DNA from: Rotaria sp.
Taxonomy: Eukaryota
DNA: 16,372 bases
Assembly: GCA_905250055.1 (NCBI GenBank)
Contig: CAJNOF010000033.1
Span: 895,821 to 912,192, forward strand
Direction of reading: 5' to 3'
Shown here: in pieces, positions 1 to 16,372 of the stretch
Numbering within the stretch: position 1 is the first letter of the stretch
How the letters are laid out: each line of letters begins with the position of its first letter
The notes under the pieces: model-generated
The model's database searches: none
Told to the model about the DNA's origin: nothing
Seen by the model: the letters and a program-made list of their open reading frames with translations, nothing else
Made by a program: the position numbers and the translations under genes

Positions 1-52
1 CATTACAATTAGGAACAGTTTGCTTTAGTCAGGGATCAGGCCCAGTGATTTA

Positions 53-148
53 TCTACTGGGTGGGCTCGGTGGGCGCCGCCCACTCGAAAATATACAGCA
101 GCCATTCGTCTACTGGGTGGGCCGAATGGGCGCCGCCCACCCGAAATT
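53..148. repeat. GC-rich tandem repeat of about 56 nt, 2 copies (53-92 and 109-148, about 36/40 identical). Each copy carries the near-palindrome GTGGGCG-C-CGCCCAC
   Basis: The copies are tctactgggtgggctcggtgggcgccgcccactcgaaaat and tctactgggtgggccgaatgggcgccgcccacccgaaatt. Local GC is far above the window average. A gatcaggcc motif flanks the repeat on both sides (about 35-43 and 192-200). Confidence 0.7.
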
Positions 149-356
149 TCGACTCGCTCACTCGGAAAACGAAATCTAGATAAAACACTGATCAGGCCTA
201 GACCAAATTGAGCGGAACTATGAATGAAATCTTTGAACAAAAAGTTATCAGGACCCTCACTGGGGTTTTAAACCAATCTGATGAGCCCTGCCTGCGCATC
301 TCTAGTAGTGAAGGACCGGTTTACTTCAATCTTTATATGATTTTCTATTAGGATGT

Positions 357-857
357 ATGTGTGTTATATATTTTAATTTCAAAGAAGTTTCCTCTTACAA
401 CTTTCTTTTTGTATTTTTGTTTGAAGTTCCTTATTTGGCATGCAAACCATTCGAACATTATCCTGAATCAAAAGTTTATCAATATTGTCAAGATTTTCAA
501 GAATATAGAGATAAACAATTAAAAAATTCCTATAATAAAATTTATGAACAAACATATTTTCGTGGTAGTCATTATATTAAAAAATTTTTTAATTTTTTAA
601 TTGGTATAAAAGATTGGATTATGAATTTTTTGGATGATATTTATTATTCAATAAAAAAAACATATCATCGACAAGTTAATAAAGTTAAAGATCGTGTTGA
701 TGATGTTGTATCAACAACAAAAGATAATGCTAAAGAATATTGTGATGCTAGTTTAGAAAAAGTTAAAACTTTAGTTGATGAATTTAAACGTGAAAAAGAT
801 AAATTACTTGGTAGTCGACATGCATTAAAACCTGGACAAGAAAAAGAATTAGAAGGT
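357..857 (+). CDS. SUN gene, first visible coding exon; the 5' boundary is uncertain (an acceptor-like ttgtttgaag ends at 426) and the 3' end is firm
   Basis: ORF 357-923 in the track. It shows the MVP-like codon bias (cgt/ggt/gct/tta/aaa/gaa) from about 470 onward. The donor is ggt|gtaagt at 858. The N-terminal part MCVIYFNF.. is probably intronic read-through. Confidence 0.55.
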
Positions 858-2819
858 GTAAGTAGAAAATTATTGACACAAAAAAAAAAGCAATTTTTAT
901 TAAGAAAATTGTTTTTGTTTTAGCTTATTCGACAGTTACTTGATGAATATGCTGCTGATGAAACTGGTCAAGCGGATTATGCACTTGAAGCTAATGGTAA
1001 GAAAATAAAAAAAACCAACGAAGAGAAAATGTTTCGTATTATTTTTTTTGTGTATCTTAGGTGGAAAAATTGTTGATACAAGATGTACTGAATATACTGA
1101 TGAACCTCGACAAAATGTTGTGAAATTTCTTGGTATTCCGATAGTACATATGTCTAAACAACCAGATATAATGATAAAAGTTTGTTAATTTTGATGTTTG
1201 AATTTTTATTTGCTTTGTTATTTATAGGCTGGTCGAATGCCTGGTCAATGTTTTCCATTTAAAGGTGATCAAGGTAGTGTTATTATTAAATTAGCTGTAC
1301 CCGTTAAACCAACTGAATTTGTACTTGAACATTTATCGAAAAGTATTTCAATTGTTGGACATATTAATAGTGCACCGAATAATTTTACTGTTTATGTAAG
1401 TAGAAATTTAAAATTATATTTTTATAGAATTGTAGAAGTTAATTTTAATTAATCCTAATAAAGAAACTTGTAAGAATAGTTGATAGATTCTATGTAATGT
1501 TCTAATAAAAAATTGTAAAAAAAGGATTCGGGTTTCTATTAACATGGCATTAAGTTATGGAATTTTATTCCAGACGTTATAGTATCTATAGGCATTAAAT
1601 AATTGAAATAGATCCGTTGAAGAGATTCGCTCGTCAGTGATAGCAGTAAGAGCTTAAGCTCCCTCTCAAAAATCGATCTCAGCCCAGGAACATTCAAATG
1701 ACATGAAAAAAACAGCTCTTTAGTATCTCCATGTTTTCTCTGTGGGTCTTCATTCTAGACATTTAATTTTTTTTTTGTTTGAAAGAGCATATCAGAATGC
1801 AGCGACTCTCGCGGCCCTTTTTTTTTAAAGTCTTACTTTTTAGGAGAAAAAACCGGAGCGAAAGTTCAATGACTCAAAAAATCTCTCTAAAAATTGCGCT
1901 GCTTCGATAGAGATGTTATCTTCTATGATAATAAAAAACTTATTTTAAAAAAAGGGCCACGAGAGTCGCTAGCCTTGCACATAAGCTTTCAAAAAAAAAA
2001 TATTTGGCTTTATCTCTTACTATGATGGAGTTCTGCTGGAGATACGTCGTTGAACCCATGTTCTGAGAAAAACAAAAAATGATTTTCGGTTTTTTGTAAA
2101 AACGGCCTGTTTTTCGGAGTTATGACTAGTTTATTGCATTTTTGACTTATTCTTGTCTACTTGTCGTGACAGTCAAATCACTGAAGTTCGATCGAAAATT
2201 TCACCCATAGGTAAGACTCGTAGTAGATAAAATATCCTGAACAGAATGCATCGTTGTTGAGGTATGAAATGTTGAAAAAAAAAGTATGTCGAATGCGACC
2301 TGTGATGATTCCTTTGTATTAGAGATTATTAATGAAAAAGTTCTAAAACTTTATAGGAAGATTAATTTAATTTGATCGGTAAGATGAAAATATAATGAAA
2401 TAATCAAAGTAAAAATTCAATATTGTAGTGAAGAGCTTTTAGTTAAACATGCTTATTGTTTGAAAGTATTTTGTTTTTGAATTTTTATACGAAAGATTTA
2501 TTTTTGTTTTATTTTTAGGCTTTGAAAGATAAAAATGATAAAGAAGGTACAGTTTTGGGTCGATATTATTATGATGCAGAGAACGGTCCATCACTTCAAC
2601 GATTTAAACCTCAAGTTTGTTTTATTTTTTTTTTGTTATATTATCAATAAAATAAATTTGTTTTGTATTTAGCTTCGTCATGTACCGACAATTGAATATA
2701 TTGAACTTCGAGTAACATCAAATTGGGGAAATCCAAATTACACATGTGTATATCGATTTCGTGTTCATGGTGATTTGCCAGCGGTTCAACCATCAGCACC
2801 ACCAGCACCGGCTGCATAA
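357..2819 (+). CDS. SUN-domain (Sad1/UNC-84 family) nuclear-envelope protein gene, 5'-partial, about 6 coding exons: (357/427)-857, 924-996, 1061-1179, 1228-1395, 2519-2614, 2673-2819
   Basis: Spliced translation gives a coiled-coil-like segment (..[30 protein letters not shown]..). The rest reads [25 protein letters not shown]|[39 protein letters not shown]|[56 protein letters not shown]|[32 protein letters not shown]|[36 protein letters not shown]. This matches the conserved SUN-domain core (DYAL..G..I....CSETY / W.F.G..G...I.L / Y..F.V.G) from established knowledge. All junctions have GT donors and pyrimidine-rich AG acceptors and keep the frame. No transmembrane segment is visible, so the true 5' exons probably lie upstream or outside the window. 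Confidence 0.8.
924..996 (+). CDS. SUN gene exon ([24 protein letters not shown], phase-1 end)
   Basis: Acceptor ttttgttttag at 913-923; donor g|gtaaga at 997. Confidence 0.7.
1061..1179 (+). CDS. SUN gene exon ([40 protein letters not shown])
   Basis: Acceptor gtatcttag at 1052-1060; donor gtttgt at 1180. The frame is restored by a single G carried over from the previous exon. Confidence 0.7.
1228..1395 (+). CDS. SUN gene exon ([56 protein letters not shown])
   Basis: Acceptor tttatag at 1221-1227; donor gtaagt at 1396. Lies within ORF 1237-1452. Confidence 0.75.
1770..2000. mobile_element. Foldback / MITE-like inverted-repeat element inside the 1.1-kb SUN intron
   Basis: The left arm tgaaag..gcagcgactctcgcggccc-T9 lies at about 1780-1829. 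The right arm A7-gggccacgagagtcgctagc..ctttca lies at about 1944-1995. The core is 18/19 bp complementary, flanked by complementary T and A runs and a weaker outer tgaaag/ctttca pair. The internal spacer is about 115 bp. No ORF is present. Confidence 0.5.
2519..2614 (+). CDS. SUN gene exon ([32 protein letters not shown])
   Basis: Acceptor atttttag at 2511-2518, following a 1123-nt intron; donor gtttgt at 2615. Confidence 0.7.
2673..2819 (+). CDS. SUN gene terminal exon ([48 protein letters not shown], stop TAA 2817-2819)
   Basis: Acceptor ttgtatttag at 2663-2672. The conserved C-terminal SUN motif is NW..P.YTC.YRFRVHG. Confidence 0.75.
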
Positions 2820-2921
2820 TATGCATTATTTGTTGTTTTCTTCTTTTTTCCTCTTACAATAACAAAAAAAAAACAAAAAAAAAAAACCAAATTCTAAACA
2901 TTATCGCGGTAATTCATATTG

Positions 2922-2927
2922 AATAAA
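2922..2927 (+). other. AATAAA polyadenylation-signal candidate for the SUN gene
   Basis: The hexamer lies about 100 nt downstream of the stop. An A-rich tract (2861-2886) sits between them. Confidence 0.35.
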
Positions 2928-5900
2928 CGCATAATGAAAATTATCTTTTGTTTATTTCTAAAAAACGTCTAGCTTGTGTATTTAGAAAAAAAAACAGATT
3001 AAAAAGGTGTTTATGAACAATTAATGTAGACATTCTTTTTTTTCTTTTGTTTATTTGTATGTTTATGTGGTTATTCTATGTGTTGAATCACGCTTCTTTT
3101 CTTTTTCCTTTTTTGTGTAATTGTCGGTGTGCTTCTTTCATTTTTTTTTGTCAACTTATATGTTCGAAAATAAAAATCTAGAAATCTTTGCAAATAACCA
3201 CGAAGAAAAAAATAAAATATGATTTCGTATTTAACAAAAGTAATAACAGTGACATTAGAATACTACAAAGAAAAAGCTCAAGAGAATTTTCTTTTTATAC
3301 ATTTGATAATCTGAAAAGTAGTACTTTATACTTCTATAATATCTCATCATTCTTCAGCTGATTTCATAGAAATAAAATTTCAATGAAAGCTGTTCAGCTT
3401 ATAGTTCGACATGATAATCTCGATATATTTTACTCCTTTGTATTAAAACATGTCGTAAACTTTAATTATTTCTTTTCTCAGAAATATCTTGATATAAATC
3501 GAAAAAAAAACTAGACTGCATGAGTTCGAAAAATGTCAAAAAGCGATGGTATAAGACTTTTTTGTTATTTCGAAATCTCAGGCTTTCATAGAGAAACTAA
3601 TAATGAATTACACTCATGTTCAGTCATTGTGACTCGGCCATCGAACTGATATTTTGTCAATAACTCGTTGCCAATGACACTAGTCGATGTCTATGAGAGT
3701 TCGCTTCCATGCATTGTTGTTCTTTAGCCATTTCAGTTTTACTAAATTTTTTATTTCTGGAAAGGTATGTACGAAAAATCAAAGTATGGAACTTTCACAG
3801 ATACCTTTCGACTAGTGTTATTGGATCTTACTTATAAGTAAAGCATTAGTTCAATTGACAAATCACACTTGAGAACTCTTTCTCATTAACTGACAAATAA
3901 AATATCAATAATATTTTTCAGATTGAATCATCTATGACCATATAAAAGAACTCGCAGATTTTAATTATCATTTTCAGAATTTTCATAACCTCTTAGCAAT
4001 CAAGTTTTTGAGAAAACGGATTTCAGGTGTGCACTCGTCACATTCTCAAGATTTTGAAAAATTTTTTCTCATTTCAAAATGGTAGTTGGACATGCAGAAC
4101 GATTGAGTGGATTGAGCCTTAATCACTGCATCGAAAAGAAGAATGAACTAGTCATTGTAGCTGAGCTAATGAAAAGCAATCACTCGGCTACTGTACTTGG
4201 TCCAATAAATCAATTTTTCATTCAAAGACACAAAGTGCATTCAGAAAACGAAAAAATTTTGTCTCACATGACTCTGATTCTTCTCTATCTACTTATTGAT
4301 ATTATCACTTGCGTCTGCTTCAAGTCAACTGATTCTGTTGTAACCCATTATGGCCTTTGTTCGATACTTATGTTACTTGACTTCATGAACATACTCAGAA
4401 GCATATGTTCACTTATTTTGAATCGATGGACCTCACGATAAAGCTATATTACCTTATTTTCTGAGTCTGAAATCACGTAGTTTTAATTATTGAATGTGAT
4501 AAATTTCATTTTACAGTGAATTTCATAAATTTCAAGAGCAAAGAAGAATATAAAAAACCTATTGATAAATGGATACAATTTTCTATATAAACAACCAGAA
4601 TGTCTACTTCGAACCTCTAATGAAATGAAAACTAAATGAACATATGACTATATTTTTCTAGAAGCCCTGTTTGAATTATTACTATATAAAGAGAGAAAAT
4701 TTTCTTTAATTTTCTAAATAGTATAATAATGCATCAAACAGATTATGCTCTCTAATGAACAGTCAATGATGACTTGTTTATTATAAGACCACTATTCGGA
4801 TTGTCTAAACTATGTGTACATTGTGTTAGTAGTCGAATATAATTAGTTGAGAAGAGTCTCGCGCATCTGCCAAACGACTTCAACACTTAGTATAAAACAT
4901 GTCGCTAAAAATAAGATTCACCCATGTAAGAGCTACTGAGAAACTAATACTAGTATACAAGATCAGCATAATGCATGCTATACCAGCGTTCTTTCTTGAA
5001 AGTGTGGTATCATGGTACATTGTTATTAAAACGGGTGAATATTTTTGAAATCTGATAAAATAGGCAGAATTGAGTCGACTTCAATGCACTCCAATAACGT
5101 TGAACCGTCTGTACTCTAACTGCATTGCCCCAATCGACTCCATTTATGAAATGAATTTTTATTAGTAAAATATATTCTGAAACTGTGCTTTTTTCGGTTA
5201 AGTTGAATTGAGGTAGAACATACTTTATGCACTGTTTTATAGTTAAAACCGAAAGTTGTAAATGCTACCACCGGTAAATTGCCGATAGTGCAAAGAAACA
5301 TGTGAGATTGGTACGGTTCAGATTCGGATGCTAAAGTTTTGGATCGGACAATATCAAACATATAGGGTCATCTTTCAAAATTGATACGACTAAGAATAAT
5401 GTGTAGGAATGTACCGAGATTTTAACTAATAGAAAAAGTATTGAAATTTACATCTGTAGATACTTGTCATGATGGTTCGAGTATACAAAAACTTCGAACT
5501 CTTGTATGATAAACGAAGTTAATAAAAAGCTTTAAGTTTTAAGCAAGATTGTTATAATGTTTTAAGTATGAGTACAATGAATTGTCAATTATTCGTAATC
5601 CTATGTTCAATAGAATACAGGTCGTAGTATGATAACTTAAAATATATTAAGTTAAATTATTTAGTGTCTTTTTTTTCATATTAGAATGAAATTTAAAATC
5701 AAAATTATCAAGGTAATACTCAAGATTTATTTATCTTTTCGGGAAATAATAAATCATTAGTAAATATTCATAAAAATGTCACAATTTTAAAAACAAAGAT
5801 TTAATTAATAATGCTTTTACATAAACTAGGTCAACTTTTTTCTATCAACAGACGTGTACGTTGTGGAATACTTTTTATACATTTCATCGGCATTGGGTTG

Positions 5901-6060
5901 TTTTTAAACATCGGAATCATTTATCAATAATTTGTTTTTTTTTTTTTAAGTGATGTTTTGCTCATGATGATTCATAGAGATTTACACGTCTGTGTTCTGT
6001 CATCGTTATTACTAACTTGAAAGAATATAAAAAACAAGCTACACGTTGTGCAATAACAAC

Positions 6061-6126
6061 GATGGCGATGATGACGACGATACAGAGAGAGAGAAATATA
6101 GATTTTTTTTCTCTCATTCTCTCTCT
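6061..6126. repeat. Cluster of simple repeats, (GATGRC)n, (GA)6 and (TC)n, about 160-220 nt upstream of the MVP-A ATG
   Basis: The sequence is gatggcgatgatgacgacga tacagagagagagaaatatag ...ctctcattctctctc. Confidence 0.7.
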
Positions 6127-6223
6127 TTTTTTTTGTGAGGGGCAAACTTGCACAATACTTTGAAAAAAAATATTTCACTGTCTCCCGTGTAATATCTTGT
6201 GCATGTCTCTATTGTTTTTCATT

Positions 6224-6233
6224 ATTTTATAAG
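6224..6233 (+). promoter_or_regulatory. TATA-like element (ttttataag) about 50 nt upstream of the MVP-A start codon
   Basis: The call rests on sequence motif and position only. Confidence 0.3.
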
Positions 6234-6282
6234 TAGGCATTCATTTTCATATATTCGTCTAGATTATAATTCACCAAACGAC

Positions 6283-6476
6283 ATGAATCCATCGACTACG
6301 ACTACATCTACTAATAAAGGTGGCTCAGGTCCATTGTATCGTATACCACCTTACCATTATATACATGTTTTGGATCAAAATACAAGTGTTACAAGACTTG
6401 AAGTTGGTCCTAAAACATTTATTAAACAAGACAATGAAACAGTTACTATCGGACCTGAAAAGATGATTACAGTACC
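6283..6476 (+). CDS. MVP: MVP-A exon 1 ([65 protein letters not shown], phase-2 end)
   Basis: The ATG at 6283 is preceded by a TATA-like ttttataag about 50 nt upstream. The upstream in-frame ATG at 6199 has non-genic codon usage. The donor is cc|gtacgt at 6477. This junction gives ..TVPPRHYC, the same position as in MVP-B. Confidence 0.75.
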
Positions 6477-9400
6477 GTACGTAAATCATTTCTAAATAAA
6501 GAAAAATAAGTAAATCAATACTTATTTTAAATTATTTCTAGACCACGTCATTATTGTGTGATTGAATCACCTGTAGTACGTAATGAAGCAGGAGAAGTAC
6601 AATATGATCAAAATGGTCAAGCTAAACTTGTTCATGCTGATTTGGATATTCGTCTTGCACAACCTGATCAAGCACCATTCCCACTTTATCCTGGAGAAGT
6701 TCTTCGTCAAGTATGAAAAACAAAAAAAAAGAAAAATCGATATTTTTCTTATTTCTATTTTATTTGTTTGATCTTATTTTTAGCCAGTTACACCTTTAAA
6801 AGTTGTACCAGCTAATTCAGCATTACGCTTAAAAGCTGTACTTGATTTTGAAGATGAAACAACCAAAGAACAACGTCGTGCCGGTGATGAATGGTTATTT
6901 GAAGGACCTGGAACATATATTCCACGAAAAGAAGTTAGTGTAGAAGAACAAATTCGTGCAACTATAATTGGTCCTAATCAAGCTATTCGACTTAGTGCAA
7001 AAAAAGAAATCATTGATCGATCAGGACAACGACGTGTTACTGGTGAAGAATGGTTGGTTAAAAAAACTGGTGCCTATTTACCACTTGCCTATGTAAATAA
7101 AATCAAGTGTCTTTTTTTTTAGAAATTTTAATTTTTTTTCTTATTTATTAAATATTTTAGGAAACAGTGGTTTCTGTTGAAAATGCACATGTTTTAACAG
7201 ATAAAAAAGCTCTTCATCTTCGTGCTCTTAAAACTTTTACTGATGATTTTGGTAAGAAACGTATGAATGGTGAAGAATGGCTTGTTACTCTTAACGATAC
7301 TGAAACACATACACTTAGTGTTTATGAACAATTAGTTGCTATTGTTGATGTAATAACACTTAATTCACGTCAATATTGTGTTATTCTTGATCCAGTTGCT
7401 GCTGATGGAAAACCACAATTAGGAAAAAAGGTTTGTTTTATGAACTAAGATCTAAAACGAGTGTTGAAGTAGAAATTTGGGCTAATATACAGATATTGAC
7501 GGACATCTTAGTAACATATGTCTGAAAATTGAGTTGAGACATTGGATAGTTTAAAAAATCAAACATATATTTTTGTGCCGTAACGGAGGCAGTGATGACT
7601 CAACCGATTGTCTTACAGTTCTAATACCAGATCTGTCTCAAAATAGATAAACAAAACCATTTTTCTATGGTTAAGTGTGTTTTTTATATTGGAATTTCTT
7701 TACTTTTTTGTTTTTAGAAACTTATTGTTGGTGAAAAATCATTCTTTCTTCAACCGGGTGAAAGACTTGAAAATGGTATTCAAGATGTTTATATATTAGG
7801 TGAAGATGAAGGTGTTATTCTTAAATGTATTGAAGCATTTACTGATGAACAAGCTGGTACAGAACGAAATCCAGGTGATCGATGGATGATTCGTGGTCCA
7901 AGGTAAGATATTGATTTGTTTTTTTTTCTTTCAAAAAAATAAAATAAAATCTTTATTTTATTTTATTTTATTTTAGTGAATATATTCCTCCAACACAAGT
8001 TGAAGTTGTTACACGTCGTAAAGCAATTCCATTAGATGAAAATGAAGGTATTTATGTTCGTGATATAAAAACAGGTCGTGTACGAGCTGTTATTGGTGAA
8101 ACATATATGTTAACACAAGATGAAGAACTTTGGCAAAAAGAATTACCTAAACAAATTGAAGATTTACTTTCACGTGATCCATTAGCTGAACGAAATGTTC
8201 CAACACGTAATCAAACATCAGATAAAACTCAACAACAAACATCTACTACTACACAAGCAACAAGTTCAAAATCAAGTACAACAAGACGTGACAAATCCCA
8301 ATTAATTACTTATCGTGTACCACATAATGCTGCTGTACAAATATATGATTATAAATCTAAAAAAGCACGTATTATTTTTGGTCCTGAACTTGTTATGCTT
8401 GGTCCTGATGAACATTTTACATTACTTTCATTAAGTGGTACTGTACCAAAAAAACCAAATCAAATTCAAACACTTTGTTTACTTCTTGGTCCTGATTTTT
8501 TTACTGATGTTATTGTTATTGAAACAGCTGATCATGCTCGTCTTTCACTTCAACTTTCATATAGTAAATGAATGAATTCGAATTGATTTTATTTTTTTTA
8601 TTTTTTTATTTATTTAGATTGGCATTTTGAAGTTAGTGATATGAAAGATGAAAAAGAAGCTGCAAAACTTTTTTCAGTTCCTGATTTTGTTGGTGATGCA
8701 GCTAAAGCTATTGCATCACGTATTCGTGGTGCTGTTGCTGGAACACAATTTGATGATTTTCATAAAAATTCAGCACAAATTATTCGTGCATCTGTATTTG
8801 GTCTCGATGCTAATCAACATATACGTGATCAATTTGTTTTTCCACAAAATAATCTCGTTATAACATCAATTGATATACAAAGTGTTGAACCAGTTGATCA
8901 ACGTACACGTGATGCACTTCAAAAAAGTGTACAATTAGCTATTGAAGTAAAATAAATTAAATTATTTTATTTAATAGATGCAAAAAAAAAATCTATTTTT
9001 CAATTAGATAACAACAAATTCACAAGAAGCTGCAGCTAAACATGAAGCTTCACGTCGTGAACAAGAAGCTAAAGGTTTATTAGAACGTCAACGTATTAAA
9101 GATGAAGCTGATGCTGAACAAGTTCGTAAACAACTTTTGGAATTACAAGCTCTATCAGCTGCTGTTGAATCAGCCGGTCAAGCTAAAGCTGAAGCACAAA
9201 GTCGTTCTGAATCAGCTCGAATTGAAGGAGAAGCTGCTGTTGAACAAGGTACAAAGAATATTAATAAAAAAAAATATATATAATATCTAAATAATGAACT
9301 TTTTTTTTTCCATTATTTCTTTTGAATAGCTCGTCTTAAAGCTGAAGCTACACGAATTGAAGCTGAAGCTGAATTAGCACGTTTGAAATTAGCACGTGAA

Positions 9401-9730
9401 GCTGAAATAAAATATTTAGGTGAACAAAATGAATTAGAAATAAGTAAAAAATCTGAAATGTCAAGAATTGAAACAGACAAATTCAAATTACAAGTTGAAT
9501 CAATTGGTGCATCAACTATACAAGCTATTGCTACTTCTGGTCCAGATACACAAGTTAAACTTTTACAAGCACTTGGTCTTCAATCAATGTTAGTTACCGA
9601 TGGTCGTACACCAATTAATCTTATGGGATTTGGACAAGGTCTTTTAGGTGGTTTGACTAGTAATACAAATAAAAAAATACGATCATCAACTACAGCTTCA
9701 AGTAATTATCATGTTGAAGAACATGAATAG
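6283..9730 (+). CDS. MVP: Major vault protein paralogue A (MVP-A), complete, 9 exons, about 894 aa: 6283-6476, 6542-6710, 6784-7092, 7161-7430, 7718-7902, 7977-8563, 8618-8946, 9008-9248, 9330-9730
   Basis: The spliced product is collinear with the MVP family along its whole length. It contains [73 protein letters not shown] and [10 protein letters not shown]. It also contains [117 protein letters not shown] and [38 protein letters not shown]. The C-terminal coiled-coil and cap-helix region is present (..[22 protein letters not shown]). Total exon length is 2685 nt, which equals 895 codons. Every junction is GT...AG and keeps the frame. Confidence 0.9.
6542..6710 (+). CDS. MVP: MVP-A exon 2 ([56 protein letters not shown])
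   Basis: Acceptor ttatttctag at 6532-6541; donor gtatga at 6711. Confidence 0.8.
6784..7092 (+). CDS. MVP: MVP-A exon 3 ([25 protein letters not shown]...[17 protein letters not shown])
   Basis: Acceptor ttatttttag at 6774-6783; donor gtaaat at 7093. Confidence 0.8.
7161..7430 (+). CDS. MVP: MVP-A exon 4 ([42 protein letters not shown]...[19 protein letters not shown])
   Basis: Acceptor aatattttag at 7151-7160; donor gtttgt at 7431. Overlaps ORF 7167-7448. Confidence 0.8.
7718..7902 (+). CDS. MVP: MVP-A exon 5 ([61 protein letters not shown], phase-2 end)
   Basis: Acceptor ttgtttttag at 7708-7717, following a 287-nt intron; donor ag|gtaaga at 7903. Confidence 0.75.
7977..8563 (+). CDS. MVP: MVP-A exon 6 ([30 protein letters not shown]...[15 protein letters not shown], phase-1 end)
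   Basis: Acceptor tattttag at 7969-7976; donor a|gtaaat at 8564. Contains ORF 8107-8571. Confidence 0.8.
8618..8946 (+). CDS. MVP: MVP-A exon 7 ((N)[41 protein letters not shown]...[12 protein letters not shown])
   Basis: Acceptor tttatttag at 8609-8617; donor gtaaaa at 8947. Contains ORF 8641-8955. Confidence 0.8.
9008..9248 (+). CDS. MVP: MVP-A exon 8 ([80 protein letters not shown], phase-1 end)
   Basis: Acceptor ttcaattag at 8999-9007; donor g|gtacaa at 9249. Confidence 0.75.
9330..9730 (+). CDS. MVP: MVP-A exon 9 ([37 protein letters not shown]...[57 protein letters not shown], stop TAG)
   Basis: Acceptor tttgaatag at 9321-9329. Contains ORF 9383-9730. AATAAA candidate at 9829-9834. 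Confidence 0.8.
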
Positions 9731-9828
9731 ATGAGAACATTCGACAATTAATACGTTCTTTATTCATGTGTGTTTACGTTATTTTCTATACACTTAGTTT
9801 GATTTCTTTTTAAATACTTATGTAAGAT

Positions 9829-9834
9829 TAATAA
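9829..9834 (+). other. AATAAA polyadenylation-signal candidate for MVP-A
   Basis: It lies about 100 nt downstream of the TAG stop. A second AATAAA lies at about 9921. Confidence 0.35.
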
Positions 9835-11049
9835 ACTTAACGAACAATTCTTTTATCGATTCAATTTTCTATTCTATACTGAAGTTAAATGAAGATGTTT
9901 ATATAGTTTCAATTATTATAGAATAAATATTCGACTTGAAACAAAAAAACTATTGTGTATTAAATGAATATAAATCGAGAGAGAAATAATAGACTTCAAA
10001 TGATGTGCAAAGATTTTCGGAGGTTCAATAAAAAAAACCATAAAAAAAAAAGTTTCATAGATAGATATGATCATGACGAATACTTTTTCATTCGGAACGA
10101 TACCATTTATGTAAGAGTAAAAATTGCATCGAATGTCAAGTTGACCCGATTTATGTGTCCCACCATAAATATAATAATCATACATTGTTATTTTCTTTCT
10201 TTTTGTGAAATTTCATTGCGAAGGTATTATGAAATATAGGTTGCAATATCACCATAAACTCTGATAATCATAGTTTACCAGTAGGATGATTTTTGTCCTA
10301 ATCTAGAAAAAAAACATATTCTTAATTGTATTCGTATTGTAGATAAAAATCGAATATTCGATTGAGATATGGTATTTTGTTTTCTCATTCTGATCATCAT
10401 GATTTAAAAATTTGACATCATACATCATTATTTACAGCTTATAAAATAAGCATAAAAATCAAAATATCTATCATTCATACTCTTTTCATAACGTATGACA
10501 GACAATATATAATAACTAATATATTGAATAATATTTGACTTCTTATTTTAATTTCCTTTTGATAGTGTAAATCATTTTCTATCCAAACTAATGAATTGCA
10601 CTCTGAATAAGGTCACAAGAATTTTTATTCGATCTTTTTTTTTTCTTTCATAAATTCAAGGTTATTCTTTTGTTAATTACATTTTCGTTCTGCTTACTAG
10701 GTATTTCTATGTTTTATTTTACCTGTCGATGGATACTTATGTAAATAACTATGCACATCTTACTTTTCTTTTACCTTGAAATTAATAATGTTTTCAAGTA
10801 TTACTTGAATAGAATATGTGATTCATATTTAATGCTTTTTTGTTTTCAAAGAATACTAATTCTTATAATATTTTATTGTTGATAATAATGATTCAAAAAA
10901 AAAAATGTCTATACGTTACACAAATACATAAAACGAAATAAATGTTATAATAAAAATGTTTCGAATTTTGTTTGTTTGTTTTTTTTTTCTTTCAAAAATC
11001 TGACTGCACTCGAGTCAAAATTATTTTAAGTTGTTTAAATAACGAGTGC

Positions 11050-11169
11050 TCAATTTTGTTGTACCATACTTGATCCAACTAAATCAACAGCTGTATTAAA
11101 AAGATTAATTGGGCTACGTCCATCAGTAATTAATGTTGATTTAATACCAAGAGCTTGAAGAAGTTTAAC
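11050..11169 (-). CDS. MVP: MVP-B exon 13 ([39 protein letters not shown], stop TGA)
   Basis: The acceptor ttttttaag is the reverse complement of 11170-11178, after an intron carrying an A16 tract. The stop is the reverse complement of tca at 11050-11052. Confidence 0.75.
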
Positions 11170-14100
11170 CTTAAAAAAAAAAAAAAAACAATAACAAAAG
11201 AAAAAATAAAGATAAAACAAAAAATTCACTTGATTGTCTGGTCCACTAGTAGCAATAGCTTTAATTGTTTCTGGTCCAATAGAACTAACATGTTCTTTAA
11301 ATTCATTGATTTCAATTTCAGCTAATCGTTTAGCTTTATCAATATCTAGATCAGTTGTTAATTTCGAATAATTTATATCTAATTCACGTGCTTGTGTTAA
11401 ACGTTGAAGTTCCATATCAGCTTCAATTTTTGCTGCTTTAGAACGAAGTGTAGCTAAAATGAAAATATATATATGAATATGAATAAAAATATATAATTGA
11501 AAAAATTAATGTTTATTTACCTTGTTCAACAGCAGATTCACCCTCAATTTTAGCAGCTTCAGCTCGTGATTGAGCTTCAGCACGTGATTGACCAGTTGAT
11601 TCAACAGCTGCTGATTCAGCTTGAAGTTGTAATAATTTTCGACGTTCCTTTTCAGCTAAACAAATAAAAAATGAATTTATATTATAAAACAATCTTTAGA
11701 TAAGATATATAAAAATAATTACCTTCAGCTTCATCAGTAATCTTTTGTCTTTCTAAAAGACCTTTTGCTTCTTGTTCTGTTCGTGAAGCAATATGTCTAA
11801 AAAGAATATTTTAATAATGAAAATGTATTTTATTATTTCTAATAAATCATTTTTACTTTGCTTGAGCTTCTTGAGAATTCGTTGTAATCTAAAGAATTGA
11901 TTTATATTAATTATAATAAAAAAATCAAATTGATTTATTTTCTTACTTCAATAGCTAATTGTACACTCTTTTGAAGTGCATCACGTGTACGTTGATCAAC
12001 TGGTTCAACACTTTGTATATCAACTGATGTTAAAACTAAATTATTTTGTGGAAATAGAAGACGTTTATTAACACGTTTATTTTCATCAAGACCAAATACA
12101 GATGCACGAATAATTTTTGCTGAATTCTTATGAAAATCATCAAATGATATACCAGCAACAGCACCACGAATTTTTGCTGCAACAGCTTTACAAAAATCTC
12201 CAATAAAATCAGGAACAGAAAAAATTTTTGAAACTTCTTTATTATCACTACGATTATTAACCTTTATAAGAAAAAATAATAATAATAATAATAAAATTTC
12301 AAAATCAAACAACAATTTTTCTTTTTTTTTTTTGTCTTACTTCAAAATGCCAATTATATGAAAGTCTAAGTGAAAGACGTGCATGATCACTTGATTCAAT
12401 TGTAACAATATCACTTGAAAATTCTGGTCCCAATAAAAGACATATAGCACGAATTTTATTTGGTACTTTAGGTTTTTCACCCGATAAATTTAAAACTGTA
12501 AATTGTTCATCAGGATCAAGTATAACAAGTTCAGGACCAAAAACAATACGTGATTTTTTAGATTTAAAATCATATATTTGTACAGCAGCATTATGTGGTA
12601 CACGATAACTAACAACTTTTGATTTATCTCTTGGTGGAGTAACATTTGGTGTATTAGATTTATCTTCAAAATGTCGTGCATCTAATACAAGTAATTGTTC
12701 AACTTGTGCTGGTAATTCTTTTTCCCATAATTCTTCATTTTCAGTTAATAAATATGTACTACCAATAACTGAACGAATTTTACCAGTTTTAACATCACGA
12801 ACATAAATACCTTCATTAACATCTAATGGTACAGCTTTACGTCTTAGAATAACTTCAGCTTCAACAGCTGGTATATAATCTTTTGGACCTCGAACCATCC
12901 AACGATCACCAGGATTACGTACAACTTTCTATTTAAATAGAATATAATTAATTAATTAATTTTTTTTTTGTGAAAGGAAAAATTAAAATCATATAAATAC
13001 TTACTCCATCTTCTTTAAATGATTCTGTACAACGAAGAATAAGACCTTCATCTTCTTCAAGAACATATACATCTTGTATACCATTAGCTAATTTTTCACC
13101 AGGTTGAAGAAAAAATGTTTTTTCACCCTTAAAAAAGAAATTGTTTTTTATTTTTAATGTTATAATTAAATCAAATTTATTTATACTTTAATTAATTTTT
13201 TCTTTCCTAATTGAGGTTTACCATCGGAATCAACTGGATCAAGAATAACACAATATTGACGAGAATTTAATACTGTTACTGATACAACACCAACAACCTA
13301 TGTTTAAATATTAAATTATTTCTATTTTTGTCTTTCTATTCAAAAAAAAAAAATGAACCTACTTCTTCATATACATCAGGAATATATGTTTCAGCATCTT
13401 TTACATATACTAACCATTCTTCTCCATGAAGACGTTTACGTTTGAATGCATCAGTAAATGTTCGTAATGCGCGAACATGAAGAGCTTTCTAAAAAAAGAT
13501 CAACATCAATATAAGATTATAATAATAATAATATCTTATCTACTTTATCAGTAAGAACATAAGCTGTGACAGTTGAAATAACTTCTTCATAGGCTAATGG
13601 TAAATATGAACCAACAGTTCTATTAAGCCATTCTTCACCTGTTTCTCGTTCAATACCATCACGATCAGTCATTTCTTTTTTAGCACGTAAACGTACAGCT
13701 TCATTAGGTTTAAGAATAACAGCTTTAATTTGTTCTTCAACACTAACTTCTTTACGTGGAAAATATGTTCCAGGCCCTTGAAAAAGAAATTCATCACCAG
13801 CTCGAATTTGTTCACCTTGTTCATTAATAAAATCAAGAACAGCACGAAGACGTAAAGCACAATTAGGTTCAATAACTTTTAATGGTGTTACAGGTAGTTT
13901 AAGAATTTCTCCTGGATAAAGTGGAAATGGTTCTTGTGCAAAACGTATATCAACATCAGAATGAAATAATTTAACTTGACCATTTTTATCTATAACAACT
14001 TTATCATTTTTATCTCGAACTGCTGGATTTTCAATAACAGCATAATGACGTGGACTATATACAACAACAATAAAAAAAAAATAAAACAATATGATAAAAA

Positions 14101-14345
14101 CTAATTTTCAACCTACGGTATGATTAACATGCGTTCAGGTCCAAGTATAACTTTTTCATGATCTTGTTTAACAAAAGTTTTTGGACCTACTTCAAGTCGA
14201 GTTACATTTGTATTTTGATCAAGTACATGTAAATAATAGAAAGGAGGAATTCGATATACTAAATATATAATCATATAGTAAAAAACCAAAACGTCATTAT
14301 TTATTAATGATATATCTTACCACCGCTAAGTTTTGGATCAGCCAT
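11050..14345 (-). CDS. MVP: Major vault protein paralogue B (MVP-B), complete, 13 exons, about 841 aa (plus-strand coordinates): 14321-14345, 14117-14258, 13544-14054, 13363-13488, 13187-13297, 13005-13127, 12341-12928, 11947-12261, 11857-11888, 11723-11796, 11521-11655, 11230-11453, 11050-11169
   Basis: The reverse-strand spliced product begins MADPKLSG|[48 protein letters not shown]|[18 protein letters not shown]...[32 protein letters not shown]. It continues |[42 protein letters not shown]|[37 protein letters not shown]|[41 protein letters not shown]. The next segment is |[73 protein letters not shown]...LSYNWHFE|[37 protein letters not shown]...SVQLAIE. It ends |[11 protein letters not shown]|[24 protein letters not shown]|[45 protein letters not shown]|[32 protein letters not shown]...SGPDNQ|[39 protein letters not shown]. 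This is about 65-70% identical to MVP-A across the alignable regions. Total exon length is 2526 nt, which equals 842 codons. Every intron is GT...AG and 55-79 nt long. Confidence 0.88.
11230..11453 (-). CDS. MVP: MVP-B exon 12 ([75 protein letters not shown])
   Basis: The acceptor attttag is the reverse complement of 11454-11460. The donor gtgaat is the reverse complement of 11224-11229. Upper part of ORF 11050-11415. Confidence 0.75.
11521..11655 (-). CDS. MVP: MVP-B exon 11 ([45 protein letters not shown], phase-1 end)
   Basis: The acceptor tttgtttag is the reverse complement of 11656-11664. The donor g|gtaaat is the reverse complement of 11515-11520, the same position as the MVP-A exon 8 donor. 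Confidence 0.75.
11723..11796 (-). CDS. MVP: MVP-B exon 10 ((K)[24 protein letters not shown], phase-1 end)
   Basis: The acceptor ctttttag is the reverse complement of 11797-11804. The donor g|gtaatt is the reverse complement of 11717-11722. Confidence 0.7.
11857..11888 (-). CDS. MVP: MVP-B exon 9, a 32-nt microexon ([10 protein letters not shown] + aa, phase-2 end)
   Basis: The acceptor ctttag is the reverse complement of 11889-11894. The donor aa|gtaaaa is the reverse complement of 11851-11856. It is flanked by introns of 58 and 60 nt. The frame only works with this exon included. Confidence 0.65.
11947..12261 (-). CDS. MVP: MVP-B exon 8 ([37 protein letters not shown]...[13 protein letters not shown])
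   Basis: The acceptor tcttataaag is the reverse complement of 12262-12271. ORF 11935-12315 covers it. The donor gtaaga is the reverse complement of 11941-11946, the same position as the MVP-A exon 7 donor. Confidence 0.8.
12341..12928 (-). CDS. MVP: MVP-B exon 7 ([45 protein letters not shown]...[15 protein letters not shown])
   Basis: The acceptor atttaaatag is the reverse complement of 12929-12938. ORF 12305-12898 covers it. The donor gtaaga is the reverse complement of 12335-12340. Confidence 0.8.
13005..13127 (-). CDS. MVP: MVP-B exon 6 ([41 protein letters not shown])
   Basis: The acceptor ttcttttttaag is the reverse complement of 13128-13139. The donor gtaagt is the reverse complement of 12999-13004. 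Confidence 0.75.
13187..13297 (-). CDS. MVP: MVP-B exon 5 ([37 protein letters not shown])
   Basis: The acceptor aaacatag is the reverse complement of 13298-13305. The donor gtataa is the reverse complement of 13181-13186. Confidence 0.75.
13363..13488 (-). CDS. MVP: MVP-B exon 4 ([42 protein letters not shown])
   Basis: The acceptor tttttttag is the reverse complement of 13489-13497. The donor gtaggt is the reverse complement of 13357-13362. Confidence 0.75.
13544..14054 (-). CDS. MVP: MVP-B exon 3 ([18 protein letters not shown]...[20 protein letters not shown]). It spans the region that MVP-A splits into exons 2, 3 and part of 4
   Basis: The acceptor atatag is the reverse complement of 14055-14060. 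ORF 13517-14089 covers it. The donor gtagat is the reverse complement of 13538-13543. Confidence 0.8.
14117..14258 (-). CDS. MVP: MVP-B exon 2 ([48 protein letters not shown], phase-2 end)
   Basis: The acceptor tatttag is the reverse complement of 14259-14265. The donor cc|gtaggt is the reverse complement of 14111-14116. Confidence 0.75.
14321..14345 (-). CDS. MVP: MVP-B exon 1 (MADPKLSG, 25 nt, phase-1 end)
   Basis: The ATG (reverse complement of cat at 14343-14345) sits in the context cactATGG. The donor is g|gtaaga, read from the reverse complement of 14315-14320. No alternative in-frame ATG exists in exon 2. Confidence 0.6.
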
Positions 14346-14401
14346 AGTGGTTTGTTTTTGTTATCAAAAAAGAAACGACAAATCTGCAAGAATAAAACGT
14401 C

Positions 14402-14411
14402 CTTTTATGTA
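14402..14411 (-). promoter_or_regulatory. TATA-like element (minus strand ACATAAAAGG) about 60 nt upstream of the MVP-B start codon
   Basis: It is the reverse complement of ccttttatgt. The call rests on motif and position only. Confidence 0.25.
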
Positions 14412-16372
14412 TGTTAATATCCGTGTAGAAAAAAAAAATGTGCATTAAAAAAGGGTTATATGAAACAAGAAGAAAAAAAACAACAATTTTCAACTTGATT
14501 GTGAAATGACATTAGTATAAGTTAACGTTAAACATTGCACGACTAACCTACAATAATAACTGAATAAGGTTGATTCATGTCATAAATAAGAAGAAAGAAA
14601 GAAAAAAACAGACGATACAAAGAGAGTGAATTAGAGAAAGAACGCAAGAGCCCCTTTTTGACACATTATATTGCAACATAGTCATGAAAGTATAAAAACT
14701 TAGCAATTTCATTTAATTCTGAAATATTCTAAATGCGTAAAAAAAAATGCGATAATGAGTTGCTTCTTTCTGATGTAATAATTGATATCTAAAATAAAAT
14801 CTAATATGATTGGATATGACGTCTACTTTTTTTTTTTGATCTAGATAAGAAAGAAATCAAATAGAGCAAAAAAAGAAATTTTACTTTTTTTAAATTTCGT
14901 TATTATTGAATATGATAAGTATATGTGTTTGTCAAAAAAATAACCATGGCTATGGTGAAAACAAGACTTACATTCGAATTTTTATTGATTTAGGATAATT
15001 ATATTTATATGTCATTCATAGCCGAGCGAGCGAAACAGCAAATTTTAAGATAGAAGTCGATAGTTCCAAAAAAAAAATATTCGGAATCGAATCGACGATC
15101 TAATAATAGTATATTTGATAACTGATACAATAATTTTTCTTCTCGAAGTTGTTAACGTCTATTTTGTTTCTTTAATGAAGAATTATATTGAAGTGAAACT
15201 TTGTACAAACATAAGGGGGTGTCTAATTATACATACAAAGATATTTCAGATTTGTATCTCATTGTTAGTAGGACCTAGGACAATTTCAATATATTTATAA
15301 TACTTAATTTTGATATCTATGGCATTCAATCAACTGAGTAGAAAATGTCTATTCAGTTTTTTTTCTTTATTTAACCCAAGACACTGCTTTCTATTAACTC
15401 TTGTAAATCTCTTCTAATGTTTTCCTTCTTTCTCTGATCTTGAGACATAGACTACGTCAAAAACGTTTTGCGAAAACTGAGAAAATTTTATGAAAAGATG
15501 AACTTGAAGTTAGGATGATTATGACAATGCTAAATATTTTCTGTGCTCTTAATCATACTTTTGGCTGCTTTTGATTTTTCTTTTCATCAAGGTGTAAGAA
15601 ACATACATAGTTTATCTTTAGTGTGATCGTAGATTGTTCCCTTCGACTTTAGTTTATGAAACATTCGAACAGCTTACCACTGATTATTTCAAGAGGTTTT
15701 AGTGCAAGGGGGAGAGCAGCTAAAACTTTCATGTTAAACTCTCATGAAATCTTCTGAAACCCTGCAAAATCTTTGGAAAGAATTTCGACCAATACCCGAC
15801 AAAACATTTGAAGAGGTAATTAAGTTTAGTAAATCTGTTACCGACTTTATTTGCAATCAGACAAAGACCTGAAGTTAGTCATAGTTCTTGAATTGTCAAG
15901 TCTTCCGATATCTTGAAGGTAGAGTCCTAATATGCTCAAGTTTTTTAACTTTCTCCCCCTATCAAAAGGGTGTAAGTATAAGTGCGTGCGATGGATAAAA
16001 TAGAGTTCTTGCCTTCACCTACATCCTATTAGTACGACAGTTTTATCCATGAATATTCAAAAATGTTGATAGAATATTTCTTTTCTAGCGATTTTCAAAA
16101 TCGAAAAAATTATTGATGCAATCCTTGTTTAGTATTTTCCGATAAATTTGTACGTAAATCATCAAATACTATCTTGACTTTCTTCAAAGGTAACAATACC
16201 AAAGCCATTAGTTTTCGAAAGCTAGTATGAGTATCCATATCTTCGACATAATTTTTTTGTAAAATATCCTGAATTGTCAATATATAGTTACTAAACGGAA
16301 ACTATGACACTACTTTATTTCTTTTCTGTTATCTTTTGACTTGTGTATGATCTATGTGATAATGTTAGTATC

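Follow-up and report, generated by a model that had tools for sequence, protein, structure and literature searches.

Two convergent MVP genes in a bdelloid rotifer

We analyzed a 16,372-nucleotide (nt) stretch of contig CAJNOF010000033.1 (positions 895,821 to 912,192, assembly GCA_905250055.1; hereafter the window) from the bdelloid rotifer Rotaria sp. Silwood1. The sequence is AT-rich (~30% GC) and holds two complete major vault protein (MVP) genes, MVP-A and MVP-B, which are transcribed convergently and lie tail to tail (Table 1). Both gene models were built by hand from the sequence and then rebuilt with a custom dynamic-programming spliced protein-to-genome aligner, using the Adineta steineri protein as the guide for MVP-A and the Rotaria socialis protein for MVP-B; the aligner output was exactly equal to the hand-built models for both genes. 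An original prediction, made from the window sequence, had counted 8 introns in MVP-A and 12 in MVP-B, and the gene models and spliced alignments bear these counts out. All 20 introns have GT–AG boundaries, and the two proteins are 66% identical. The MVP-A model agrees residue for residue with the annotated Rotaria sp. Silwood1 protein P0001. On three contigs of the same species (L007–L009), an 841-amino-acid (aa) product is annotated on the opposite strand just downstream, at the place of MVP-B, and the MVP-B model on these contigs has the same 12 intron positions and 1–3 amino-acid differences.

The vault repeat families PF01505, PF17794, PF17795, and PF17796 scored far over their cut-offs in both proteins, and the shoulder domain PF11978 was matched in both MVP-A and MVP-B (E = 1e-48 and 2e-52). 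Both align colinearly and over their full length with the MVPs of Lingula, Saccoglossus, and Nematostella, including the C-terminal helical region, at 64–72% identity. The ratio of nonsynonymous to synonymous divergence (dN/dS) was ~0.19 for each gene against its sister copies, and both copies appear to be functional and under purifying selection. Among mRNA-like contigs from JGI environmental samples, two (L013 and L014) carry an uninterrupted 841-aa open reading frame (ORF) that is 86% identical to MVP-B and aligns in one ungapped block through all 12 of its junctions, and two more (L015 and L017) carry an A-type ORF, 87–88% identical to MVP-A and colinear with it over all 8 junctions.

It could be argued that the junctions are mispredicted or that one copy is a dead pseudogene with unreal introns; several public annotations of related MVP copies are indeed wrong. 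We regard such an artefact as extremely improbable, given the intact ORFs with their full domain sets, the low dN/dS, and the intron-free mRNA-like contigs of relatives that cross 20 of the 20 junctions without a gap. The two independent modeling routes furthermore agree on both genes, and one of the models is identical to the public annotation. The unexpressed pseudogene that the original prediction had named as fatal to its comparison was therefore not found in either copy.

Table 1. MVP genes and introns of the window. Intron positions are given as alignment position/phase; a slash in a junction marks a split between codons or between the letters of a codon, and a caret marks a residue whose codon is split
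Feature	Coordinates	Strand	Junction	Position	Remarks
MVP-A coding sequence	6283..9730	+			894 aa in 9 exons (8 introns); start codon to stop codon
A intron 1	6477..6541	+	TVP^P, phase 2	64/2	Shared with B; rotifer-specific
A intron 2	6711..6783	+	LRQ/PVT, phase 0	122/0	Sole ancestral intron kept by A
A intron 3	7093..7160	+	LAY/ETV, phase 0	225/0	Novel; 45 nt upstream of ancestral 240/0
A intron 4	7431..7717	+	GKK/KLIV, phase 0	315/0	Novel; 12 nt upstream of ancestral 319/0
A intron 5	7903..7976	+	RGP^S, phase 2	380/2	Novel; 47 nt downstream of ancestral 365/0
A intron 6	8564..8617	+	SY^N, phase 1	579/1	Novel; SYNWHFE hot spot, 4 nt upstream of ancestral 580/2
A intron 7	8947..9007	+	LAIE/ITT, phase 0	708/0	Shared with B; bdelloids only
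A intron 8	9249..9329	+	VEQ g/ct, phase 1	788/1	Shared with B; rotifer-specific
MVP-B coding sequence	11050..14345	-			841 aa in 13 exons (12 introns); start codon at 14345, stop codon at 11050
B intron 1	14259..14320	-	SG^V, phase 1	17/1	Novel; B-lineage
B intron 2	14055..14116	-	IIP^P, phase 2	64/2	Shared with A
B intron 3	13489..13543	-	TDK/KAL, phase 0	240/0	Ancestral metazoan; also Lingula, Saccoglossus, Nematostella
B intron 4	13298..13362	-	YEE/VVG, phase 0	282/0	Ancestral; shared with Nematostella
B intron 5	13128..13186	-	KLIK/GEK, phase 0	319/0	Ancestral metazoan
B intron 6	12929..13004	-	EDG/KVV, phase 0	365/0	Ancestral metazoan; sequence-similar to A intron 5
B intron 7	12262..12340	-	WHFE/V, phase 0	584/0	Novel; hot spot, 10 nt downstream of ancestral 580/2
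B intron 8	11889..11946	-	LAIE/ITT, phase 0	708/0	Shared with A
B intron 9	11797..11856	-	QA^K, phase 2	718/2	Ancestral metazoan; leaves a 32-nt exon at 11857-11888
B intron 10	11656..11722	-	EAE^A, phase 1	743/1	B-lineage; older than Didymodactylos split
B intron 11	11454..11520	-	VEQ g/ct, phase 1	788/1	Shared with A
B intron 12	11170..11229	-	DNQ/VKL, phase 0	863/0	Ancestral metazoan

Intron maps and near-miss pairs

Alignment of the two copies gave three positions identical in place and phase (TVP^P in phase 2, LAIE/ITT in phase 0, and VEQ g/ct in phase 1), with 5 introns private to MVP-A and 9 private to MVP-B, just as originally described. The same description had singled out four near-miss pairs, in which an MVP-A intron has an MVP-B counterpart a few codons away, and had suggested intron sliding, repeated gain at neighboring sites, or retroposition followed by re-intronization as their cause. 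Three of the pairs were recovered with offsets of +45 nt (LAY/ETV in A vs. TDK/KAL in B), +12 nt (GKK/KLIV vs. KLIK/GEK), and +14 nt (SY^N vs. WHFE/V). The remaining one, the third in order along the gene, is a near pair as claimed, but A intron 5 and EDG/KVV are -47 nt apart, or ~15.7 codons instead of ~13; the phase of A intron 5 was correctly called as 2, but the split codon AG/T encodes Ser and not Arg, making the junction RGP^S.

Near intron pairs have been defined as intron positions <32 nt apart in homologous genes (Lehmann, Eisenhardt, Stadler and Krauss 2010, PMC2891723); the 12- and 14-nt pairs lie under this distance and the 45- and 47-nt pairs over it. As each gene has an uninterrupted ORF across the junctions of the other, no other choice of splice sites can make the A and B positions coincide, and the coincidence of true junctions that had been put forward as a refutation does not occur. 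Both members of a near-miss pair were found together in none of the mapped genes. In all four pairs, MVP-A, MVP-B, the monogonont, and the outgroups have conserved, homologous sequence in the 4–16 codons separating the two positions.

Polarization against outgroups

Following the check proposed with the original prediction, we mapped the intron positions on an MVP alignment including relatives and outgroups and polarized gains against losses. Annotated MVP proteins were mapped exactly onto their genomic loci. The non-rotifer outgroups were Lingula, Saccoglossus, and Nematostella, and the rotifers comprised the monogonont Brachionus, the A-type and B-type genes of Didymodactylos carnosus, the A-type gene of Adineta steineri, and two more Silwood1 loci, A2/B2 on L006 and A3/B3 on L011. 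The public models of Didymodactylos B, A2, and B2 had wrong junctions or N-termini and were re-predicted by homology before use. On L006, the annotation of P0125 fuses LRR exons to the MVP gene via a 4.4-kb intron and that of P0034 omits one N-terminal exon; on L003, two misplaced junctions in P0124 cost 6 and 3 conserved residues. The homology-guided models bring back the conserved sequence missing from all three.

Polarized in this way, the two maps have very different compositions. MVP-B has six ancestral metazoan introns (240/0, 282/0, 319/0, 365/0, 718/2, and 863/0), three rotifer-specific introns shared with MVP-A (64/2, 708/0, and 788/1), and three novelties of the B lineage (17/1, 584/0, and 743/1). 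MVP-A has one ancestral intron (122/0, also present in Lingula and in the A-type and B-type genes of Didymodactylos), the same three rotifer-specific ones, and four novelties (225/0, 315/0, 380/2, and 579/1). These four novelties are the A members of the near-miss pairs, and they are absent from the three outgroups, both Didymodactylos genes, and the monogononts. In three of the four pairs, the MVP-A partner is novel, and that of MVP-B is an ancestral intron also found in Lingula, Saccoglossus, and Nematostella; the fourth pair (579/1 and 584/0) consists of two derived introns, one on either side of the ancestral position 580/2, which has been lost.

This fourth pair falls in the invariant SYNWHFE motif, where we found four different intron positions within 14 nt: 579/1 (split A/AT) in Rotaria A and A2, 579/2 (AA/T) in Didymodactylos A and B, the ancestral 580/2 (TG/G) in the three outgroups, and 584/0 (GAA/GTT) in the Rotaria B copies. 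Several copies are without an intron at this motif.

The A-type map is the same in A, A2, A3, and the Adineta steineri gene, except that 579/1, present in A and A2, is missing in A3 and Adineta A; it is also absent from the A-type gene on a metagenomic bdelloid contig, L059. Position 225/0 is confined to the Rotaria and Adineta A-type copies. Among the shared positions, 708/0 is present in nine of the nine bdelloid genes mapped outside L059, absent from the outgroups, and lost in both L059 copies. Positions 64/2 and 788/1 are found in the A and B copies of Rotaria and Adineta, 64/2 also in L059, and are absent from both Didymodactylos genes and the outgroups; 579/2 and 608/1 have the reverse distribution among the bdelloids. 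The A-type gene of Didymodactylos has kept the ancestral 122/0 and 164/1, carries its own novelties (305/1, 371/1, 400/1, and 746/0), and has none of the eight positions composing the four near-miss pairs, a state consistent with an intron-less intermediate. The monogonont MVP genes are nearly or fully intron-less.

Phylogeny and proposed history

In a neighbor-joining tree of MVP proteins, the rotifer sequences were monophyletic (bootstrap 85), and the A-type and B-type genes each formed a clade (86 and 100, respectively) with Didymodactylos at its base. The convergent A–B pair was seen in five independent loci or species: the window, L006, L011, Didymodactylos L003, and L059. A Sad1/UNC gene adjoins the A-type MVP in Rotaria (two loci) and Adineta. 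Since the A and B clades each have a basal Didymodactylos member and the convergent arrangement is shared, the A/B duplication predates the bdelloid radiation.

We consider it likely that MVP-A and MVP-B arose by an old duplication specific to bdelloids and form a tail-to-tail pair whose maps differ by retention, loss, and gain, and that the introns themselves did not move. The outgroup comparison shows that the pre-duplication gene had at least nine ancestral metazoan introns and at least one rotifer-specific one (708/0), and that the B lineage kept most of these. Before the bdelloid radiation, the A lineage would have lost the ancestral block 240, 282, 319, and 365, along with 633, 718, and 863, most likely through recombination with a partly reverse-transcribed mRNA, which would take out neighboring introns together. 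This would have left A intron-poor, with 122, 164, 708, and one hot-spot intron. Its long intron-free exon would then have been re-intronized independently in two lineages, the A gene of Rotaria and Adineta gaining 225/0, 315/0, 380/2, and 579/1 and that of Didymodactylos gaining 305/1, 371/1, 400/1, and 746/0.

Several observations weigh against this history of retention, loss, and gain. The sister grouping of A and B has a bootstrap value of 68%. Three non-rotifer outgroups were mapped, and the "novel" positions of A could be old introns lost in all three; the junctions of MVP-A and MVP-B are themselves predictions from genome sequence. The mechanisms of loss (cDNA-mediated) and of gain are read from the pattern. 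The tandem-duplication footprint of intron gain, intron ends resembling the adjacent exon, was seen in 0 of the 20 introns, and neither a transposable-element footprint nor an introner-like family was found among them, non-homologous introns being dissimilar with the exception of one pair. That pair, A intron 5 and B intron 6, shows ~76% identity over ~60 nt (score 31), which the proposed history does not predict. Finally, chance levels were obtained by Monte Carlo intron placement. Four of the five A-private introns have a B-private intron no more than 47 nt away (P = 0.03, this limit being set with the data in view), and the clustering at SYNWHFE gave P ~0.05 under a uniform null; some non-random intron placement is thus possible.

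Proximity, sliding, and the SYNWHFE hot spot

Other measures of proximity gave weaker signals. Two A-private introns lie within 14 nt of a B-private one (P = 0.08), and the 19 bdelloid-novel positions have a mean distance of 38.9 nt to the ancestral positions, with 41.9 nt expected (P = 0.34). The proximity of the near-miss pairs is therefore close to chance and only marginally beyond it, with P ranging from 0.03 to 0.34 by test. Ancestral introns are spaced roughly every 45–70 codons, so that a new intron is likely to fall within ~16 codons of an ancestral one and near misses are to be expected. More generally, near misses between paralogs descending from an intron-dense ancestor are expected by chance and should be polarized by outgroups before they are taken for sliding. 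The suggestion of repeated gain at neighboring sites is supported as far as gain in one copy is concerned, but the closeness implied by "neighboring" is near the chance level.

Under intron sliding, each near-miss pair would be a single intron whose splice sites moved by 12–47 nt in one paralog. The 12- and 14-nt pairs are within the range of near intron pairs (<32 nt, PMC2891723), the four positions at SYNWHFE include offsets of 1 and 3 nt, and the introns of the 47-nt pair are those with ~76% identity; intron similarity of such kind has been regarded as sufficient evidence for sliding (Lehmann et al., PMC2891723). Sliding is disfavored because it should have swapped coding for intronic sequence in the stretch separating each pair, yet A, B, and the outgroups share conserved, homologous codons there. 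Offsets of 47 and 14 nt are moreover not multiples of three (those of 45 and 12 nt are), and the tree contains intron-less states: A3, Adineta A, and L059 A at the hot spot, and Didymodactylos A, which has neither 315 nor 319. The sequence similarity in the 47-nt pair is limited to one locus and hence recent, while the positions are old. For the first three pairs, in which the B member is ancestral, the A member novel, and the 4–16 codons between them conserved, the proposal of sliding is not supported, and for the set as a whole we judge it quite unlikely. The fourth pair (SY^N vs. WHFE/V) lies in a real hot spot, where sliding and recurrent gain cannot be told apart.

Retroposition and differential loss

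Retrocopies normally land elsewhere in the genome. If MVP-A had arisen as an intron-less retrocopy and been completely re-intronized, its loss of at least 12 ancestral positions and its four lineage-specific introns would be accounted for, and the monogonont MVPs show that intron-less or nearly intron-less copies do arise in rotifers. MVP-A, however, keeps the ancestral 122/0 (and its Didymodactylos ortholog also 164/1), has 64/2, 708/0, and 788/1 in common with B, and sits beside Sad1/UNC in a conserved convergent pair with B. We thus find the ancestral losses and new introns of the retroposition proposal in the data, but a whole-gene event is contradicted by the retained 122/0, the three shared introns, and the tandem location, and is very unlikely.

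An equally low probability is given to differential loss only, in which all 17 positions were present in an intron-rich ancestor and each copy lost a different subset with no gains. Seven of the 17 positions are demonstrably ancestral, and Nematostella turned 282/0, apparently private to B, into an ancestral intron, which illustrates how sparse outgroups can hide old introns. Such an ancestor would nevertheless need introns 12 nt apart (315 and 319) and four positions within 14 nt at SYNWHFE, whereas positions so close co-occur in none of the 15 mapped genes. The 10 non-ancestral positions are also absent from Lingula, Saccoglossus, Nematostella, and the monogononts, and most of them from Didymodactylos.

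Similarity between A intron 5 and B intron 6

Of 2,034 pairs of introns at differing positions, A intron 5 and B intron 6 were the top match. The null scores had a mean of 10.3 and a next-best value of 26, and the maximum was 24 for length-matched and 25 for order-2 Markov sequences; the other three near-miss pairs showed intron similarity of z ≤ 1.45. The common core of the two introns, tttttc(c)tttca(c)aaaaaaa, occurs nowhere else in the window or in 96 loci, save for alleles of the same locus. In the orthologous introns (A3, Adineta A, and A2 compared with B3 and B2), the similarity is absent, with scores of 6–13. As the orthologs are without it, the similarity is recent and locus-specific and not a relic of the origin of the positions.

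One may also read the bdelloid MVPs as a record of active intron relocation, not of independent loss and gain, since ancestral introns appear to have been repeatedly replaced by new ones a few nucleotides away, two lineages independently re-intronized the same regions, and A intron 5 resembles B intron 6. We think this unlikely. If true, the A intron 5/B intron 6 similarity would have been left by a recent transfer of intron sequence from one position to another between the neighboring paralogs, possibly by reverse splicing or by paralog-templated repair of double-strand breaks, routes that would fit an animal surviving desiccation.

Gene conversion between neighboring paralogs

On L011, where A3 (10001–13084, +) and B3 (14961–18243, -) are convergent, the 56-nt introns at 708/0 are 100% identical between the two genes, as are ~80 nt of the exon upstream, and the intron is B-like. 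A recent conversion tract, running from B to A and spanning an intron, is thereby shown directly in this sister locus. The identical intron of L011, together with the lack of 708/0 in both L059 copies, indicates that conversion between inverted neighbors around 708/0 can copy or erase introns between the paralogs. It plausibly explains positions that are common to A and B of one lineage yet absent from the orthologs of another, such as 64/2 and 788/1 or 579/2 and 608/1.

In the window itself, the case for conversion is only suggestive. Exon identity between A and B reaches 0.92–0.96 in three segments, with cross-locus identity also at 0.89–0.91, and profiles of synonymous-codon and nucleotide identity gave no clear locus-specific conversion tract, codon bias inflating the baseline. 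The introns at the three positions shared by A and B in the window have zero residual similarity. We also observed that the synonymous divergence (dS) between A and B, 0.55, is half of that between A and A2 (1.10), though by the protein tree A and B separated earlier than A and A2; the low value reflects either strong codon bias or continuing conversion between the neighbors.

Relation to known systems

Like the near intron pairs of PMC2891723, the MVP positions are mutually exclusive and a few nucleotides apart, with one ancestral and the other derived, and 315/0 vs. 319/0 (12 nt) and the positions at 579–584 meet the 32-nt limit. The MVP comparison differs in being between ancient paralogs instead of orthologs, in its 45- and 47-nt pairs that exceed the limit, and in the conserved intervening codons, where the signatures of sliding and tandem duplication were not found. 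A parallel within bdelloids is the alpha-tubulin family, whose paralogs have divergent intron maps and whose monogonont gene is intron-less (Eyres et al. 2012, PMC3464624). In both families the introns of bdelloid paralogs are many and differ in number and place, the monogonont genes are intron-less or nearly so, and conversion was noted; unlike in alpha-tubulin, the MVP positions are polarized against non-rotifer outgroups and the paralogs are physical neighbors.

Loss of adjacent introns via reverse-transcribed mRNA and intron transfer by paralog conversion are both among the listed mechanisms of intron evolution (PMC2891723). The loss of the contiguous ancestral block 240, 282, 319, and 365 from MVP-A resembles the first, its mechanism being read from this pattern only. 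The L011 intron, 100% identical between the A-type and B-type genes, resembles the second, which is demonstrated in this sister locus and not unambiguously in the window. The pair is a well-polarized new example of known phenomena, probably combining retention in B, block loss and gains in A, proximity by chance, and occasional conversion.

To our knowledge, documented intron gains in animals are scarce. As a slowly evolving and easily aligned protein, MVP allows intron gains in bdelloids to be separated from losses, with six vs. one ancestral introns retained in the two copies and at least 10 lineage-specific positions. The data suggest intron gain in bdelloids after the paralogs had split, while the monogononts stripped the same gene almost bare. 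The SYNWHFE hot spot, the identical intron of L011, and the similarity of A intron 5 to B intron 6 provide concrete sites for studying intron turnover and transfer.

Additional observations at the window and related loci

By offset from L007, the window includes the 3' part of a Sad1/UNC-domain gene that terminates near position 2832; the ~3.4 kb from there to MVP-A have no annotated gene. This gap, within 1–6282, and the region upstream of MVP-B (14346–16372) contain only short ORFs. On the Adineta steineri locus L010, Sad1/UNC and the A-type MVP adjoin and no B-type gene lies within the next 10 kb; the B-type MVP appears to have moved or been lost from this locus.

A intron 4 is unusually long (287 nt) and GC-richer than the other introns (70% AT vs. 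83–90%). Because its orthologs in A3, Adineta A, A2, and L059 are only 54–66 nt long, it looks like it carries an insertion. An Rfam scan of the window gave zero matches over threshold. Below threshold, the intron has a C/D-box snoRNA-like match to SNORD22 at 7587–7639 (17 bits, gathering score 50, E = 0.42), and its edges carry an imperfect inverted repeat of 19 nt (7420–7438 and 7649–7667).

The convergent pair on L059 consists of an A-type gene at 4001–6795 (+) with only three introns (64/2, 315/0, and 380/2) and a B-type gene at ~7600–10570 (-) with nine. A 488-kb JGI contig (L016; 26% GC) from a monogonont-like genome holds two MVP genes head to tail, at 3001–5544 and from 5795 onward. 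The first is a completely intron-less ORF of 847 aa. Four introns interrupt the 3' half of the second; the ancestral phase-2 position KK(A/S)^R holds one of these, and another is apparently 1 nt off the single intron of Brachionus. A 1-nt offset was also seen between bilaterians and the cnidarian at the first ancestral intron (L001, L002, and L012), which is in phase 2 in Lingula and Saccoglossus (52/2) and, in Nematostella, one codon further on in phase 0 (53/0).

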